IMG/VR virus record: IMGVR_UViG_3300016474_000093
Span: 1,417-65,416 of that record
Source: a virus
Lineage: Duplodnaviria > Caudoviricetes
Reading direction: 5' to 3' (one strand)
DNA: 64,000 bases
Position 1 is the first letter of the stretch; every line of letters starts with the position of its first letter. The notes below the pieces were generated by a model. It was not told the DNA's origin. It saw only the letters and a program-made list of their open reading frames with translations, and did not search any database. Below, piece by piece: positions 23,198-40,463 of this stretch. Both the position numbers and the translations under genes were made by a program.

Positions 23198-24205
23198 TTA
23201 GTTCTCCTGTTTATCTGTGTGAATGACATACCCCCAGTTGCCTGATGGTATGGGTTTACCTGCTTCAATGGTTTCTATCTTGAACGCTTGCTCTTGCTCA
23301 TAAATTTCATCCAAGATAGATTTTTTAGCTCTGTCAAAGAATTTACTTCTATGGTTATCAATCAGCTCGTACAGACGGTTCGGACGATGTCTATAATTCC
23401 AAGGTACGCAGCTCATCTCGACTCTTCTCACGACGCGTGAGTACATGTCGTTGTTACCCAAGTTGTAGTTAATAGTTGAACTCAATCCAAAGGTCATATC
23501 TTCAACAATGTTCTGAGCACTTGCGGCCATGAAGAACCCCCTTGCGGCCTTGAACTCATCTTCGTATTTCTTCCGTATCAACTTCGTGAGATTTGTATCA
23601 AGACGTTTTACGTTAACGTAATAGTTGCAAGACTCATGCAGTCTCAGATCATTCAGATAAACACGTAGGCCAGGAAAGACTGGATGGACGACGCTACCGT
23701 TTTTCCCAAGCTGTGAATATCTTCTAAATGATATGTTAGTAAGTACCACCCCACCCCTACGTGAACTACTAAATAAACAAAACGACGGAAACAAACGATT
23801 GAGCATCGCTTGATCACCGAAGTATGGTTTCGATGCAAACGTAAAGCTGTCGTCTGTATGCACGTAGCCAAGCACCTGTTCATTGAGCTTGATCGTGACC
23901 GTGCCCTTGTTCTCGACGTAGTAGCGGCGACGACCATAACGACGATGGCCTAGCGGAAACTCTTTGCCACCCGAACCAGCGTAGGGTTTGTTCACCACTG
24001 TTTCTAGGCGTGGAGTTTCGTTTTGGTAAAAATATCTTCTGACTTGGGTTTCAAAAGACGGGTTTACAAAGTCCGCGTGTGATACACGCGGAAAGACATC
24101 TGCGTAGTTCATAGTTTCTCCTGGTTTAATACGACTATATTTCAGGCCGAATAACTTGTTCAGCCCAGGTAAAAGTTGTTTCAGTAATTGCTTTCTAGTA
24201 ATCAT
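23198..24205 (-). CDS. Hypothetical protein carrying an N-terminal major-capsid-protein mimic; second start at 24112
   Basis: First 25 aa match the MCP N-terminus (18/24 identical); an internal AGGAG-N5-ATG (MNYADVF) follows at codon 32. Confidence 0.75.
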   Translation of the reverse strand: MITRKQLLKQLLPGLNKLFGLKYSRIKPGETMNYADVFPRVSHADFVNPSFETQVRRYFYQNETPRLETVVNKPYAGSGGKEFPLGHRRYGRRRYYVENKGTVTIKLNEQVLGYVHTDDSFTFASKPYFGDQAMLNRLFPSFCLFSSSRRGGVVLTNISFRRYSQLGKNGSVVHPVFPGLRVYLNDLRLHESCNYYVNVKRLDTNLTKLIRKKYEDEFKAARGFFMAASAQNIVEDMTFGLSSTINYNLGNNDMYSRVVRRVEMSCVPWNYRHRPNRLYELIDNHRSKFFDRAKKSILDEIYEQEQAFKIETIEAGKPIPSGNWGYVIHTDKQEN

Positions 24206-25467
24206 TTGTCCATGAAAACTTTCTTACCTGTTGGTACGGTCAAATGTTTGTTCTGTGTGATCACCCACAGCAATGGGGCTGTGTGAGTCCATCTGATGTT
24301 GGATTCGACATGACCATCGGTGAAGAGGATGACGCACTCGGCATTGATGTTTTCCTTAACTAGGTATTCACTGACGCATGAAACTCTAGTACCGCCGCCA
24401 CCCTTGGGCTTGAGCATGTGCTGAAGTCCTGCATAGTTTCCCTGAAACACTTGTTCGCCATGCGTTTCTGCATCCCACCAGATAACTCTGACTTTCTCCG
24501 GCTCGACTGTTTCGCAGATAGAGACCAGTTCTGTAGCGAACGCGTTCAGCTCCTCCCCACCTATCGACCCGCTCGTGTCGATACCGACCACGATCTCACC
24601 GACAGTCTCACCCATTGCGACTGGGATATAAATATCGTTTGCGACCATGCGACGGTTGTACCTACGCCAAGAATATTCTTGCTTACCTACGCAGATAGAG
24701 CTGACGAACTCTCGCAAGACTTCCTTCCAGTCGATCTTGGGGTCAAGCAAGTTGTCGATGTGTCGTGGTTTGTCCCCGCCAAGTATCCCTGCAAGGATGC
24801 CGCCTTGACGCAACGCACCATCGATCTTCTCGCCTAGCTTCTTGATCTCCTCTTCGCTCAACTTCTTGAAGTCATGCTCGTCCATTGTCTTTTTGTAGTT
24901 GCGGAGCATGTCATCGATGTCAGTCGGCTCGCGGTTGTTGTTGCCCTTGAGTTGGCCTTCATCGTCAGGTGAACCGCTATCTTGCCCACCCTCGTCACCT
25001 TGCCCGCCGCCTTGCTCTTTCTCTTTGTCTATCCTCTGTTGTTCTTTCTTCAGATAGTCATAGACTTGCGTGACACTCCAGTCACGGAACATAGGATTCC
25101 ACAGCCAGCCTTCCCCGATCTGAATGTCTGGTGTGTTCCAACGTACGATGATGTCATTGACGACAAAGTCTGCGGCATAGTTCGCAAGCCTACTATCCTC
25201 TCTGAATATGTGCGTGTAGTGACTAAGGTGACGCAGGTACTTGTGACCAACCTCGTGCATGATCGTCGCACGGAGCAGTGGCTCATCGCATCTCTCAAGA
25301 TACTTCTCACCATAGACCACGTTAACGCCATCGGTGTAGGCAGTGGATACCTTCTTGTCCACTCTCGACTCACCCATCACGATGATGCCTGAGAACAGCA
25401 TCGTCTTCTCGTGTTTCATCAAGAAGATGTGGTTGCGCTTGAGCCTCTCGGCTTGAGATTCTTTCAT
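24202..25467 (-). CDS. DUF2201-like metallopeptidase plus vWA domain protein
   Basis: TAYTDG, HEVGH zinc motif, NYAADFVVND, acidic Gly-rich linker, MIDAS DTSGS, GGGGT, FTDG. Confidence 0.88.
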   Translation of the reverse strand: MKESQAERLKRNHIFLMKHEKTMLFSGIIVMGESRVDKKVSTAYTDGVNVVYGEKYLERCDEPLLRATIMHEVGHKYLRHLSHYTHIFREDSRLANYAADFVVNDIIVRWNTPDIQIGEGWLWNPMFRDWSVTQVYDYLKKEQQRIDKEKEQGGGQGDEGGQDSGSPDDEGQLKGNNNREPTDIDDMLRNYKKTMDEHDFKKLSEEEIKKLGEKIDGALRQGGILAGILGGDKPRHIDNLLDPKIDWKEVLREFVSSICVGKQEYSWRRYNRRMVANDIYIPVAMGETVGEIVVGIDTSGSIGGEELNAFATELVSICETVEPEKVRVIWWDAETHGEQVFQGNYAGLQHMLKPKGGGGTRVSCVSEYLVKENINAECVILFTDGHVESNIRWTHTAPLLWVITQNKHLTVPTGKKVFMDK

Positions 25468-25521: not shown

Positions 25522-26631
25522 CTAGCCAAGTAAGTGATGGTTAGCAATTGACCACTTGGTCACTGTCTCGTTGTAGCGAGCCAGTCGTGCCAACTTCGAG
25601 CGAAGCAAGATCACAAACCACAGCGTCTGGATCTCGACTTGCTTGATGCGATTGACAAACATCTGAAACTTGTTGAGCTTGTCCTGCGAGTCGATGTGAT
25701 CAAGAGCTTGGAAGATCATCAGCAAGAGCGGCGCAGTGTCGTTCTCGTCTGGCATCTTGATGCCCATCGGATCTCTGATGATGTTGTCAAACTTCTCAAC
25801 CTTAGACTCCATCTGTACAAACGCAGACATGTCACGGCCACCCCTCTCGCCAATCGTGCCGCACAAAAGCCCAAGCGTTACTGACTCCGGCAGCTTCGCT
25901 CTGATGATGGCATCACATTTCTCTAGTGAACGCGGCGAGACAAAAGACATCGAAGGCTTGCTCGGATGAAAGATGTACGGATTGTCCTGTTGATCTGGGT
26001 CGAGGTATGACTTCAGCATACGGGGATACACCGCTACCGTAGCCTTCACGATAGGGTGAATGTCTTTGTCCTGTGCCCATATCAACCACTCCTGCATACT
26101 CGGCTTCTGCATCTTGACGATGGTCAAGCGATTGGCAGTGTGAGCTGGCAACACATCTCCAACACCATCACTGGAGTTGTTCGACGTAGCGAACACATAC
26201 GATCCTTTGGTAAGCGGCCTGTCACCGACTGTCTTCTCCAAATACATTCTGGTGTAGATCGGTTGCAAGAGTTTGGGAACCTTCAGCGCCTCGTCGATAA
26301 GCACAACCTTGGGACGTGGGTTGTCAAGGTTAAACAGACTCGACACGTAGTACTCCATCGACTTAGTCGTATGGTTGGGTATCGCTGCGGCCAAGTCCAT
26401 CATCTCTTTGTTGGGGCCATCGATGTAGACGTAGTCGTACTTGTCATCCTCGAAATAGTCACCGACCTTGCGCCACTTGTCGCCGAACATCTCAGCTAGG
26501 CCACGCAGTATGGAAGTCTTGCCGCACCCAGGCTCAGACAAGACAAGGACAGTGTTGTGCTGACCGATAGCGGCGATAGCTTCGGTGGTCTGACTGATGG
26601 TCAGGGTTGGATAGGTTGTAATTGCAGACAT
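25522..26631 (-). CDS. MoxR-type AAA+ ATPase
   Basis: Walker A EPGCGKT, Walker B LIDE, ATSN, NRL and SPRS motifs; adjacent to a vWA gene. Confidence 0.88.
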   Translation of the reverse strand: MSAITTYPTLTISQTTEAIAAIGQHNTVLVLSEPGCGKTSILRGLAEMFGDKWRKVGDYFEDDKYDYVYIDGPNKEMMDLAAAIPNHTTKSMEYYVSSLFNLDNPRPKVVLIDEALKVPKLLQPIYTRMYLEKTVGDRPLTKGSYVFATSNNSSDGVGDVLPAHTANRLTIVKMQKPSMQEWLIWAQDKDIHPIVKATVAVYPRMLKSYLDPDQQDNPYIFHPSKPSMSFVSPRSLEKCDAIIRAKLPESVTLGLLCGTIGERGGRDMSAFVQMESKVEKFDNIIRDPMGIKMPDENDTAPLLLMIFQALDHIDSQDKLNKFQMFVNRIKQVEIQTLWFVILLRSKLARLARYNETVTKWSIANHHLLG

Positions 26632-26712: not shown

Positions 26713-27591
26713 TTAAAACTTCATACCGAACTTCGACAGGATGTCATCCATGCCATCTTTAACTGTAGCCTTCACAGCCTCAGAGTCACGGATATCTTCG
26801 GCGGTATAGTTCGCAAGCACCTGTCGAGCCTGCTTGCGTATCGCCTCGATCTTGGGATCTTGGATGATGTTAAATGTCGCCAAGGTGTCGATCAACTCCT
26901 TGGCCCCCTGTATCGTAGACTCGTACACCTTGGGCCTACGCTTGCCCTCTTCTGGTTCTGAACAGGCATGAGCGATCCTCTCGATGTAGTCCAACAACTG
27001 TTCGCATGATGCGGACATGATCTCGTGAATCTGCTCGTTCGCCTGTTGTGAGTAATACTGATTCATATCCTCAATGATCTCTTGAGCCACAGCACAACGG
27101 AAGTCAGCCACAGGCACAGGTGCAATGTGTAGTTTCATGCTGAAGCGATTCCGCACCTCCTGCTCAGACGGGTACAAGGTCTTGTCGAACATCGTCCCCT
27201 GACTGAAGGCCATCTGCGCCACGATTGAGGGATAGTGTGCGACAAAGTCATCTACAAGTGTGGCATGTTCAGTCTCAAGGTCACGGTACTCGGCCTTGGT
27301 CTTTTCAAGGCGAGCCATTGGCAACAGACGCTGACTGCCCGCCCAGTCGTAGCTCAGACGCTTGAGCCAGTTGTAGACTGACTGACGGTGCATGAGGATC
27401 TTCTTGTGACGGGTGTCACCGGCAAGCAGATTCTGGATGAACTTGCCCGCCTCGCGGTCAGCGTTCTTTGCTGACGTAATCTCATCAGACACAGAGCGAT
27501 CTTGTCTTGTCGCTGACCAGACTTTCACCTCCACGTTAATGAGTAATGAGGCAGTTGCCAAAGAGATTAGATAATCGGGTTTCTTAAACAT
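26713..27591 (-). CDS. DUF3150-like protein
   Basis: LINVEVKVWSATRQD...YP....RNRF.MKLH..PVP pattern; usual position upstream of the AAA/vWA pair. Confidence 0.6.
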   Translation of the reverse strand: MFKKPDYLISLATASLLINVEVKVWSATRQDRSVSDEITSAKNADREAGKFIQNLLAGDTRHKKILMHRQSVYNWLKRLSYDWAGSQRLLPMARLEKTKAEYRDLETEHATLVDDFVAHYPSIVAQMAFSQGTMFDKTLYPSEQEVRNRFSMKLHIAPVPVADFRCAVAQEIIEDMNQYYSQQANEQIHEIMSASCEQLLDYIERIAHACSEPEEGKRRPKVYESTIQGAKELIDTLATFNIIQDPKIEAIRKQARQVLANYTAEDIRDSEAVKATVKDGMDDILSKFGMKF

Positions 27592-36729: not shown

Positions 36730-36926
36730 GAGAAAACGTAGATGTATTACACCACCTCATTAAAAAATTTGACGCAGAACGTGAGCGCTTGACTACTGTT
36801 TTAGGTCAAGGGTTGGCGCAAGACCACGCAGACTACCGCTTCCAGTGCGGAGTTATTCGTGGATTATCAATAGCAGTTGGAATGCTGACAGACACAGCAG
36901 AAAGGTTGGAAGATTACGATGAGTGA
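36726..36926 (+). CDS. Small hypothetical protein
   Basis: DYRFQCGVIRGL motif; coupled to portal. Confidence 0.65.
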   Translation: MRENVDVLHHLIKKFDAERERLTTVLGQGLAQDHADYRFQCGVIRGLSIAVGMLTDTAERLEDYDE

Positions 36927-37320
36927 ACTCCTAGTAGGGTCTACAAGCGGCTCTGCGACGGTATTGCCTGAAACCGCCGAAGAAAAAGCGCGACAACTCC
37001 CTGATCCATCAGGTTATCGGATCTTATGCACAATCCCCGAGATTGAAGATAGGTTTGATAATGGCTTAATAAAAGCCGATGTCACGATGCACCACGAAGA
37101 ATTACTGACGACGGTGCTTTTTGTCATCAAGATGGGGCCGGATGCGTACAAAGATGAGAAGCGATTCCCGTCTGGGCCGTATTGCAAGGTAGGTGATTTT
37201 GTATTGGTACGTCCACACGCAGGTACACGACTAAAAATTCATGGTCGTGATTTTCGCATTATTAACGATGATTCTGTCGAGGGGGTTGTAGAAGATCCTC
37301 GTGGCATTAGTCGCGCATAA
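36919..37320 (+). CDS. groES: GroES-like co-chaperonin
   Basis: LPDPSGYRIL...GLI...VIKMGPDAY...CKVGDFVLV...GTRLKIHG..RIINDDSVEGVV. Confidence 0.8.
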   Translation: MSELLVGSTSGSATVLPETAEEKARQLPDPSGYRILCTIPEIEDRFDNGLIKADVTMHHEELLTTVLFVIKMGPDAYKDEKRFPSGPYCKVGDFVLVRPHAGTRLKIHGRDFRIINDDSVEGVVEDPRGISRA

Positions 37321-37331
37321 AGGGGTTAAAA

Positions 37332-38252
37332 ATGGCTGAACAAGAAAACGCCAACACTGATATTGAGATTGAAATTGAAGACGATACGCCCCCAGAAGAT
37401 CGCGGGCGGGAACCGTTACCCAAAGAGCTAGTTAAAGAGCTTGAGGAAGACGAACTGGAAGAGTATTCCGAGAAAGTCAAAGTACGCCTCAAGCAAATGA
37501 AAAAAGTTTGGCACGACGAGCGTCGTGAGAAAGAACGTGCGTTACGTGAACAGCAAGCTGCATTAGAAGTAGCTCAACGACTAAAAAGTGAAGTTGAAAC
37601 TTTAAGATCTAAAGCTACAGAAAATGAGGGTTACTTTGTTCAAAGTGCCACTGGCGCAGCGCAACTAGAACTTCAAGCTGCTGAGAAAGAATTTAAAGAT
37701 GCTTATGAGGCTGGGGATTCTGAAAAGCTTTTAGAAGCCCAACGTAAAGTTAATGAAGCAACATATAAATTACAAAGTTTAAAGAGTTATCGTCCGCCCC
37801 CTGTACAAACCCAGGAAACGGTGGTAGATTCTTCACAACAGTTAACGCAACTGCCTAAACTTGACGCTAAAACCGAGAGCTGGCGTAGACAAAATACGTG
37901 GTTCGGTTCTGACGATGAGATGACCGCTACGGCACTTGGATTAAATAGCAAACTAATCCGAGATCGCGGTAATCAATTTGTTGGTAGCGATGAGTATTGG
38001 GATATCGTTGATAAAACGATGCGTAAAAGATACCCCGAGTATGACTGGGGGGATGAACCTGCTGAGATTGAGACAAAATCATCTTTAGCACGTACAGAAA
38101 GACCAGCTACGGTTGTAGCTCCTGTTTCTCGCAGTACGACCTCCAAAAAGGTCAAACTTAGTCAATCCCAACTTTATGTTATTAAGAAGATGGGTATTAC
38201 CCCTGAACATTATGTACAGGAAATGATGAAATTGGAGCGTGCAAATGGCTGA
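37332..38252 (+). CDS. Putative scaffolding protein
   Basis: Acidic N-terminus, long coiled coil, C-terminal LSQSQ..KKMGIT..Y helix-turn-helix; head module position. Confidence 0.7.
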   Translation: MAEQENANTDIEIEIEDDTPPEDRGREPLPKELVKELEEDELEEYSEKVKVRLKQMKKVWHDERREKERALREQQAALEVAQRLKSEVETLRSKATENEGYFVQSATGAAQLELQAAEKEFKDAYEAGDSEKLLEAQRKVNEATYKLQSLKSYRPPPVQTQETVVDSSQQLTQLPKLDAKTESWRRQNTWFGSDDEMTATALGLNSKLIRDRGNQFVGSDEYWDIVDKTMRKRYPEYDWGDEPAEIETKSSLARTERPATVVAPVSRSTTSKKVKLSQSQLYVIKKMGITPEHYVQEMMKLERANG

Positions 38253-38711: not shown

Positions 38712-39542
38712 ATGGCTTATCCTGTTGTAGATGCCCCTTATGGGCTAAAGCCGATCAATTTGATCGGCGGACAGGTGTTTGCGGGTTCGACTCGTGAATA
38801 TGCTATTGCAAACGGGTACAGTACCAATATTTTCTATGGCGATTGCGTAGCTCTCGTCCGTGGTAATTTGGAGCGTATTTCCGTTTCGACAGGTACCCTT
38901 GGTACTCTGGTTGGCATTTTCCTGGGCTGCTCCTACACTAATCCCACCACCAAACAGAAGACTTGGTCGCAATACTGGCCCGCCAGTACCGCTGCTGGGG
39001 ACGCTGTTGCAATTGTCTGCGATGACCCTGATACGGTCTTTAAAGCAGTCGTTTGCTCGGCTACTACCGTTGTTGCTTCGGGCGCTCGCGCCATGATCGG
39101 CCAGAACTTGGCAATGATCAACAATACCGGAAGTACGCTTACTGGTGATTCCAAGAACGCTGTACTCGCGCCTAACGACACTCCTGCGACAACCGATGCG
39201 TTGCCCTTGCGTGTGCTTGGTTTGGTGACAGAGACCGCTGTTTCTCTTGGCAGTGCTACTTATTCCAGCATTTCTACTGCTACGGTTACCTGCTCGGCAT
39301 TGCCATTTGCACTGCCCGTGGGTACCGATGTAGGTTCGTTGGATTCAAGTGGTAATTACATTCCGTCCGGTTCGTTTGTAGATACGGCTGCTTCTGCTGG
39401 TGCGACTTCGTTCGTTTTGAACCAAGCTCCGTCCACAGCTTTTGCGGCTAGTGCAACGTTGGTATTCAATCAGTTTCCCGAGATTCTCGTAAAACTGAAC
39501 CACGGTCAGCACGAGTACTACTACGCTACGGCAACTGCGTAA
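38712..39542 (+). CDS. Capsid decoration/cement-like protein
   Basis: Beta-rich, Ala/Thr-rich, immediately upstream of MCP, GAGG RBS. Confidence 0.6.
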   Translation: MAYPVVDAPYGLKPINLIGGQVFAGSTREYAIANGYSTNIFYGDCVALVRGNLERISVSTGTLGTLVGIFLGCSYTNPTTKQKTWSQYWPASTAAGDAVAIVCDDPDTVFKAVVCSATTVVASGARAMIGQNLAMINNTGSTLTGDSKNAVLAPNDTPATTDALPLRVLGLVTETAVSLGSATYSSISTATVTCSALPFALPVGTDVGSLDSSGNYIPSGSFVDTAASAGATSFVLNQAPSTAFAASATLVFNQFPEILVKLNHGQHEYYYATATA

Positions 39543-39554
39543 AGGGGAACATAA

Positions 39555-40463
39555 ATGGCTATTTCACGCGCACAACTACTGAAAGAGCTTCTCCCCGGAC
39601 TGAACGCATTGTTTGGTCTTGAGTACGCTCGCTATGGCGAAGAGCACAAGGAAATCTACGAGACCGAGACTTCCGAGCGTTCGTTTGAAGAGGAAACCAA
39701 ACTGTCTGGCTTCTCCGCCGCTCCGGTGAAGAACGAAGGCAGTGCGATGGCCTACGATAACGCGCAAGAAGCTTGGACCGCTCGTTACGTCCATGAGACT
39801 ATTGCTCTGGGATTCTCGCTGACCGAAGAGGCTATCGAGGACAACCTGTACGACAGTCTGGCTAATCGCTACACCAAAGCCCTGGCTCGCGCTATGGCAT
39901 ACACCAAGCAGACTAAAGCTGCTGCGGTCCTTAATAACGGCTTCAATACTGCCTACACGGGCGGTGACGGAGTTGCTCTGTTCTCGACAGCACATCCTTT
40001 GATCTCTGGTGGCACCAACAGCAACACGCCAGCAGTTGCGGCTGACCTTTCTGAAACATCGTTGGAAGCAGCGGTTATTCAGATTGCAGCTTGGACTGAC
40101 GAACGTGGTCTGTTGATTGCAGCTAAGCCGAAGAAGTTGATCATCCCGTCTGCATTGCAGTTCGTTGCAACTCGTATTCTGGAAACGGAACTTCGCGTTG
40201 ACACGGCAGACAACACGATCAACGCCTTGAAGAACAATGGCTCGATCCCCGAGGGTTATGCCATTAACCACTTCTTGACGGATACCGACGCTTGGTTCCT
40301 GACGACTGACGTACCCAACGGTATGAAACACTTTGTCCGTGCACCTTTGACACAAGGAATGGACGGGGACTTCGACACCGGAAACGTTCGGTATAAGAGC
40401 CGCGAGCGTTATTCGTTCGGTTGGTCTGATCCGCTTGGGATGTTCGGTTCGCCCGGAGCCTAA
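39555..40463 (+). CDS. Major capsid protein (HK97-fold, Mu gpT-like)
   Basis: 302 aa; MAISRAQLLKELLPGLNALFG...TIALGFSLTEEAIEDNLY...RERYSFGWSD; followed by a terminator. Confidence 0.9.
   Translation: MAISRAQLLKELLPGLNALFGLEYARYGEEHKEIYETETSERSFEEETKLSGFSAAPVKNEGSAMAYDNAQEAWTARYVHETIALGFSLTEEAIEDNLYDSLANRYTKALARAMAYTKQTKAAAVLNNGFNTAYTGGDGVALFSTAHPLISGGTNSNTPAVAADLSETSLEAAVIQIAAWTDERGLLIAAKPKKLIIPSALQFVATRILETELRVDTADNTINALKNNGSIPEGYAINHFLTDTDAWFLTTDVPNGMKHFVRAPLTQGMDGDFDTGNVRYKSRERYSFGWSDPLGMFGSPGA

Follow-up and report, generated by a model that had tools for sequence, protein, structure and literature searches.

Why should a tailed phage place a second version of the N-terminus of its major capsid protein (MCP) in front of a protein that lies on the opposite strand, in an operon with a MoxR-like ATPase and a vWA-metallopeptidase, and that is itself no capsid protein? 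The question is raised by one locus in a stretch of 64,000 nucleotides (the window, which covers nearly all of a 65.4-kb virus record). The open reading frame concerned, at 23198..24205 on the minus strand, encodes a 335-aa product (P0001) whose translation begins MITRKQLLKQLLPGLNKLFGLKYSR, and the MCP (P0002), a protein of 302 aa encoded at 39555..40463 on the plus strand, has the N-terminus MAISRAQLLKELLPGLNALFGLEYAR. Residues 2-25 of P0001 (ITRKQLLKQLLPGLNKLFGLKYSR; 24131..24202, minus strand) align without a gap with MCP residues 3-26 (the N-arm; 39561..39632, plus strand), and 18 of the 24 are identical, as the initial annotation had reported. This alignment scores 93 in BLOSUM62 and the best unrelated 24-mer, taken from all six frames of the 64-kb window, scores 35; no third copy of either peptide was found in six frames of the whole window, and the likeness is far beyond chance and unique in it.

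The homology of P0001 to the MCP is limited to residues 2-27, and what I will call the tag is an optional 31-codon N-terminal extension (24113..24205, minus strand) that consists of a Met, the 24-residue N-arm copy (24131..24202) and the linker IKPGET. AlphaFold2 models it, with low confidence, as a separate helix (residues 4-19) followed by a disordered linker, outside the fold of the remaining protein. Going from MCP to tag, six residues change (S>T, A>K, E>Q, A>K, E>K and A>S); on a helical wheel they are not cleanly confined to one face, and they bring the net charge from +1 in the N-arm to +6 in the tag. It had been pointed out that four of the six make the peptide more basic, and they do; yet two of them, E>Q and A>K, also occur naturally in the N-arm of a 79%-identical MCP (P0025), which agrees with the tag at 20 of 24 residues, while its DNA (48/72) is no closer to that of the tag than the resident gene is. 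Between tag and resident MCP, 45 of 72 nucleotides and 9 of 24 third positions agree, and codon choice, read from the DNA, differs at 11 of the 18 identical residues, the same count as before.

The sequence that has been copied is no ordinary part of the phage. The MCP is of the Phage_capsid_4 / Mu gpT-like kind (PF25209 at 55.1 bits against a cut-off of 27, PF10124 at 37.8 bits against 20.1, and phrog_371, major head protein); a PDB sequence search with it gave nothing usable and its AlphaFold2 model, built from 25 close homologues, reached a mean pLDDT of 36. Its first 24 residues are identical, save for one L/M position, in about 80 relatives in IMG/VR whose MCPs are 86-99% identical and whose scaffold proteins are 35-78% identical, so that no part of the capsid module is better conserved than the N-arm, and its pattern, MAI[ST]R.QL.KEL.PGLN.LFGLEY, can still be recognised in cultured kin with MCPs of 58-72% identity. 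The nearest cultured phages by MCP are Planktothrix phage Pag-Yong1, Synechococcus phage MinM2, phage DSL-LC04, the HTVC023P-type pelagiphages and, within the same 58-72% range, Roseobacter phages CRP-901/902.

On the plus strand the head genes run in the order terminase, 825-aa portal, GroES-like protein, coiled-coil scaffold candidate, two unknown proteins and MCP. The product of 37332..38252 is likely the scaffolding protein, having an acidic N-terminus, a coiled coil and a basic, helix-turn-helix-like C-terminus whose motif, KKLG[LI]TPEQY.RE..K.E, is conserved among relatives, together with a weak match to the C-terminus of Mu gpI. It diverges far faster than the MCP (78% against 99% between the window and the relative L010) and falls to 35% identity elsewhere among its homologues in L010-L089. 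No prohead protease family was recognised among the head-module reading frames or elsewhere in the window, the weak Mu gpI match on the scaffold candidate being the only hint of one. The GroES/Cpn10-like gene between portal and scaffold candidate (36919..37320, plus strand) matches Pfam Cpn10 at E=0.002, below the cut-off; its syntenic counterparts bear the annotation GroES in Pag-Yong1 and HTVC023P, and in the relative L105 the call is Cpn10, which suggests a chaperonin-dependent folding of the capsid protein like that served by T4 gp31. Directly before the MCP gene, 38712-39542 (plus strand) encodes a beta-rich protein of 276 aa (phrog_37556) whose homologues are shorter (206 aa in L105, about 195 aa in Pag-Yong1 and HTVC023P) and variable at their C-termini, and which may be a decoration or auxiliary head protein.

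The protein that carries the tag belongs to quite another module, transcribed on the minus strand in the order DUF3150-like protein, MoxR-like ATPase, DUF2201 vWA-metallopeptidase and P0001. The first gene (26713..27591) matches Pfam DUF3150 at E=2.8e-4, below the cut-off. The second (25522..26631; P0004), in a position like that of N4 gp24, is a MoxR-like AAA+ ATPase by phrog_1297 ('ATPase', 2.7e-38), its AAA matches in Pfam being weak and sub-threshold. The third (24202..25467; P0003) combines a DUF2201_N metallopeptidase domain (HExxH) with a DUF2201 vWA domain, at 81.9 and 64.7 bits and both over their cut-offs, and is N4 gp25-like, with 25-29% identity to such proteins of the Schitoviridae. 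The PHROG family that holds this last protein, phrog_1314, is named 'HNH endonuclease', a label that has spread to GenBank records of N4-like phages and that is probably an annotation error, because the Pfam domains disagree with it. The genomes are also strongly mosaic, the same capsid being found with a different early/middle module: in the relative L100 (record G001), the MCP is 99% identical to that of the window and the vWA protein only 38%, the DUF3150-like gene comes after the vWA gene and not before it, and the tagged body has no detected homologue.

Behind the tag lies the body, 304 aa (P0001 residues 32-335; 23198..24112, minus strand), which a profile search finds in 172 representative relatives and which, in all contexts examined, comes next after MoxR and the DUF2201 vWA-peptidase or is separated from them by a single small gene; the linkage of the tag to a MoxR/vWA operon protein, which the initial annotation had wished to see checked in relatives, holds wherever the tag was found. 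What the body is can be said mostly in negatives of defined scope, as it has no match in Pfam, PHROG, PDB folds or the ESM Atlas, Foldseek with the P0001 model finds nothing in the PDB at E<=0.001, a wide fold search (VIA) with the same model finds only helical-hairpin noise (best Z 4.2), Pfam finds nothing on ten distant family members, bar one unrelated RTX/beta-propeller protein, and neither megablast of the locus nor tblastn of P0001 gives a match among cultured phages. The AlphaFold2 model, of moderate confidence, combines beta-sheets with long helical hairpins. The tagged protein shows no sign of a capsid fold, given that it matches no such family in Pfam or PHROG and that the modelled body fold differs, and from the place of the gene in a replication-side operon I infer that it is non-structural. 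The peptide stands at the N-terminus of a non-capsid protein, perhaps not at the extreme N-terminus in one type of allele described below. The body gene is absent from five complete or near-complete relatives with MCPs 87-99% identical to that of the window, and there the N-arm peptide occurs only on the MCP.

How would the tag come to be translated? The stop codon of the vWA gene and the ATG of the tag overlap as ATGA at 24202..24205 (minus strand), an arrangement that would allow coupling by termination and reinitiation. The overlap is as originally described in the DNA of the window and recurs in most tagged relatives, but it is not universal, since one type of allele (L115-type) has a spacer of 37-42 nt instead. 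Fusion of the vWA protein to the tag by a programmed frameshift was considered and rejected, the sequence before the ATGA being non-slippery and variable (GACAAATGA / GACGAATGA). Further on, in frame, a second signal of the form AGGAG-N5-ATG (24110..24122, minus strand; AGGAG at 24118..24122, ATG at 24110..24112) begins the untagged 304-aa protein, and this signal, confirmed at 24112, is present in every allele examined, tagged or tagless, so that the untagged protein would be the constant product. Gene callers place the start at this internal ATG in 11 homologue clusters. With the second start conserved in this way, it is plausible from the sequences that tagged alleles yield two isoforms, one of 335 aa with the tag and one of 304 aa without it. 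A 539-nt contig from a metatranscriptome library spans vWA gene, spacer, tag and body and is weak evidence of transcription across the junction, DNA carry-over being possible.

The peptide was sought by a word-index protein search with residues 1-40 (covering proteins of 184-587 aa), an exact 20-mer scan of IMG/VR, a degenerate scan of metagenome contigs with LLPGLNKLFGLKY and searches of whole records. It does recur outside MCP genes, as the initial annotation had thought worth checking, but solely in front of P0001-type bodies; in four cultured relatives the N-arm peptide is present in a single copy, and in the distant body family (44% identity or less) the vWA stop is followed directly by the body start, leaving no space for a tag. 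Among close relatives (body 66-93% identity), comparison of the stretch from the vWA stop to the conserved AGGAGAAAC(T)ATG resolves several alleles at the junction. The 93-nt tag with ATGA overlap is found in the window, L001, L002/L114, L005, L006, L007 and L117. Two further alleles are tagless and non-coding, namely spacer A (L008, L118), of about 47 nt with the perfect palindrome AACTTATCGATAAGTT, and spacer B (L004, L009, L119), of about 43 nt. L115 is a composite in which the vWA gene stops at TAA and is followed by 37 nt of spacer B, the tag ATG and the full tag, as though the tag had gone in between spacer B and the Shine-Dalgarno sequence; alleles of this type may start upstream at TTG or GTG, which would place 11 residues ahead of the N-arm copy. 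Wherever it occurs (the window, L001, L002, L005, L006, L007, L115, L117), the tag is 93 nt long and in frame. An apparent frameshift between tag and body in L111 (IMGVR_UViG_3300049043_000359, labelled a provirus) was rejected as biology, as that contig has many short, broken reading frames throughout and the shift is most likely an error of assembly or sequencing. The palindrome of spacer A, 16 bp and followed by a T-rich run (for example L118:2268-2316), may be an operator or a weak terminator between vWA gene and body, the energy of its hairpin not being significant against shuffled sequences.

The tag is dispensable, being absent from many close relatives (L004, L008, L009, L118 and L119). 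Nor do the alleles track the descent of the body gene: tagged sequences as a single clade are rejected (AU p = 3.7e-51), at least five changes of tag state are needed on a body-gene tree of 14 rows, and spacer B and the tag each have homologous copies in both the 66% clade and the about-90% clade, for all of which the simplest reading is that these are old alleles exchanged by recombination through conserved flanks. Contigs from public sequencing runs place tagged alleles in one river and one aquatic sample, and one deep lake metagenome holds the ATGA-tag, L115-type and tagless spacer-B alleles together. The phage lineage is widespread, near-identical DNA to window positions 23600-24700 occurring in freshwater, river, lake and aquaculture metagenomes from at least 10 studies between 2017 and 2025.

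Now considering that the tag can be done without, has the peptide been kept for what it is, or has it merely been carried along? The codon differences had been taken to point to selection on the peptide and against a recent duplication. The second half of that argument stands, since tag and resident MCP differ at pS 0.88 and pN 0.20 (Nei-Gojobori, with synonymous sites saturated) and the tag is no recent copy of that gene; the first half does not follow from these values alone, which are no proof of selection on the tag, as it could have been captured from an MCP gene that had already diverged. The better test lies within the tags themselves. Among 7 distinct tags there are no indels and no stops, and pN/pS is 0.26 for the 24-residue core and 0.36 for the 31 codons (0.41 for the body), values that come from about 14-19 substitutions in related sequences. 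Replacements are confined to the polar positions 7 (L/I), 10 (Q/T/E), 22 (K/G) and 24 (S/R) and to the linker, and LLPGLNKLFGL shows several synonymous changes and no replacement at all. RNA structure was rejected as a cause of the nucleotide conservation, the folding of the tag RNA being unremarkable (z = -0.36), and the constraint would therefore act on the peptide; on these patterns I hold with moderate confidence that the peptide is translated and constrained. The initial annotation had named absence or frameshifting in close relatives, combined with neutral substitution, as what would count against it: the absence is real, and the neutrality is not seen, the dN/dS comparison that it had asked for showing a peptide constrained where present (pN/pS 0.26-0.36). 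That the tag feature is real, conserved where present and polymorphic in populations can thus be said plainly, and it is well supported that an optional 93-nt allele gives the protein after the MoxR/vWA pair a copy of the MCP N-arm that has diverged and is maintained by selection.

The same data bear on the rival explanation that survives best, although I consider it unlikely, namely that the tag is an expression device or a hitch-hiking relic, a fragment from a diverged MCP gene that took the place of the spacer and couples the body to translation of the vWA gene, while the peptide itself is inert. The alternative alleles are non-coding spacers, as though the locus were primarily a junction that sets expression of the body, the L115-type allele resembles an insertion of the tag into spacer B, the codon differences could reflect divergence between MCP lineages, and, compared with the gene that hosts it, the tag appears younger or more mobile (pS between the window and L002 is 0.19 for the tag and 0.51 for the adjoining body). 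An inert peptide, however, would sit poorly with a pN/pS below 1 within tags, with an N-arm core spared replacements despite synonymous changes and with a frame and length so strictly kept, and a donor is missing, as neither IMG/VR nor the metagenome contigs yielded an MCP that has the DNA of the tag or the sequence ...LFGLKY. One record with a 'KTLL' tag, the form seen in the 66% clade, has no MCP on it.

The reading that I favour, tentatively and while stopping short of calling it probable, is procapsid targeting: the tag would be an interaction peptide taken from the MCP, and through it a minor isoform, made by translational coupling, would reach the assembly partner of the N-arm. Ribosomes ending the vWA gene would restart at the overlapping ATGA and make the tagged 335-aa isoform, a minor product tied to translation of the vWA gene. 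The tag keeps the invariant core of the N-arm (the hydrophobic positions, PGLN, LFGL and Y) and so should bind whatever the N-arm binds, making the same protein contact that the N-arm makes in head assembly; if it does, targeting a subset of the operon protein to procapsids is the most economical mechanism. In other HK97-fold phages the contact of the N-arm is with the C-terminal helix of the scaffold or with a neighbouring capsid subunit. In 80alpha, for instance, the C-terminal helix of the scaffold binds the helix of the capsid N-arm through hydrophobic contacts (PMC5644958), and the scaffold candidate described above is by analogy a candidate partner here. Part of the operon protein would then be drawn to assembling procapsids, either to be packaged and delivered to the next cell or to have its activity coupled to assembly, and the coexistence of tagged and tagless alleles suggests that the benefit is conditional.

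Procapsid targeting is held no more firmly than this because the tag far exceeds the N-arm in basic character, because no prohead protease could be recognised and because the tag is dispensable. With the tag at +6 and the C-terminus of the putative scaffold also basic, an electrostatic fit identical to that of the N-arm is argued against, and with no prohead protease recognised in the window, a T4-like step of cleavage and release has no candidate enzyme. A complex prediction that paired the scaffold candidate with residues 1-60 of the tagged protein scored 0.00, which is informative neither way. A bolder and distinctly more doubtful version of the idea would have freshwater phages related to HTVC023P use their own N-arm as a portable signal for procapsid loading, with a 93-nt cassette, shuffled by recombination and held as a balanced polymorphism, setting whether the MoxR/vWA-associated protein is also pre-packaged and travels with the DNA.

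Less probable again than the relic is that the N-arm peptide is a recognition or processing signal, shared by the two proteins, for a protease or chaperone, through which the operon protein would share the processing or folding control of the MCP; the adjacent DUF2201 metallopeptidase-vWA/MoxR pair, a host protease and GroEL acting with the phage GroES-like protein are among the candidates. There is a precedent in the Prp motif of 80alpha (PMC5744158), the tag always adjoins the metallopeptidase-vWA gene and the head module has its GroES-like gene, but the same invariant N-arm is found in complete phages with vWA proteins of only 38-45% identity, and also in a record, 87% complete, in which no vWA gene was found, tagless alleles adjoin the same MoxR/vWA genes, and no cleavage of this MCP is known. 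Short capsid peptides can also be ligands of defence systems, as the Gol peptide of T4 is for Lit. That the tag is a decoy or antagonist, an early/middle protein that shows a basic, non-activating epitope to a host defence sensing the conserved N-arm, is nonetheless the most improbable of these explanations, for although an invariant N-arm would make a good immune target, and a presence or absence that is shuffled by recombination and co-occurs in one sample is often seen in accessory counter-defence genes, two capsid sensors of recent description, Avs7 and Dsr1, read the fold of the MCP over extended interfaces and not a 24-residue arm (bioRxiv 10.64898/2026.01.04.697583), and the tag is under purifying, not diversifying, selection.

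If the tag does work through the contacts of the N-arm, as procapsid targeting proposes, the shell protein would itself have given rise to a natural signal for loading the capsid. Tailed phages would then have a new way to stock up on proteins before the next infection, and the tag would offer a ready-made handle for loading cargo into HK97-fold shells and the first experimental entry to the widespread phage module of MoxR, DUF2201-vWA and DUF3150 (N4 gp24/gp25-like). The tagged and tagless alleles in one water sample amount to a natural deletion mutant, from which fitness and host dependence could be read in populations. Even if the tag were only a coupling relic, it would show that a piece of a gene under strong constraint can live on as an extension at an N-terminus.

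How does this compare with known systems? In principle, short N-terminal peptides common to head proteins and other proteins are known, from the capsid targeting sequence (CTS) of T4 and from the Prp motif of 80alpha; in the literature, no description was found of a non-capsid protein that carries a paralogue of the capsid N-arm, or of such a paralogue occurring as an exchangeable allele. The T4 CTS (IPI-III, Alt) is the closest analogue in function, and the likeness lies in a short N-terminal peptide on unrelated proteins that brings them into the assembling prohead; proteins carried in this way can be injected and serve accessory or anti-defence roles. The CTS, of about 10 residues and not copied from the capsid N-terminus, attaches to the scaffolding core and is cut off by gp21, the prohead protease, whereas here the peptide is a 24-residue paralogue of the MCP N-arm, no protease was recognised and packaging is only proposed. 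Encapsulin cargo-loading peptides, which are short and terminal and dock cargo inside an HK97-fold shell, are usually C-terminal, are unrelated to the shell sequence and serve a non-viral compartment, unlike this N-terminal copy of the MCP. Among MoxR AAA+/vWA pairs (RavA-ViaA and the N4 gp24/gp25-like proteins), the tagged gene is a conserved downstream operon member, and no such system is known in which a peptide derived from a capsid marks the substrate. In 80alpha, the capsid protein, the scaffold and ribosomal protein L27 share an N-terminal motif and are all cut by the host protease Prp, and the motif is also found on non-homologous proteins of other phages (PMC5744158). Both cases, then, have an N-terminal capsid sequence that recurs on a non-homologous phage protein; the 80alpha motif is a host-protease site of 13-14 residues that mimics a ribosomal protein, with an FF|A motif to which neither tag nor N-arm has an evident likeness (PMC5744158), while here the phage's own MCP arm stands on a non-structural operon protein with no known cleavage. 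A mirror image is CpmB of SaPI1, in which a short helical peptide mimics the C-terminus of the 80alpha scaffold and enters procapsids (PMC5644958): CpmB copies the scaffold side of the contact and comes from a parasite of the phage, whereas here it is the capsid side that has been copied, and by the phage itself.
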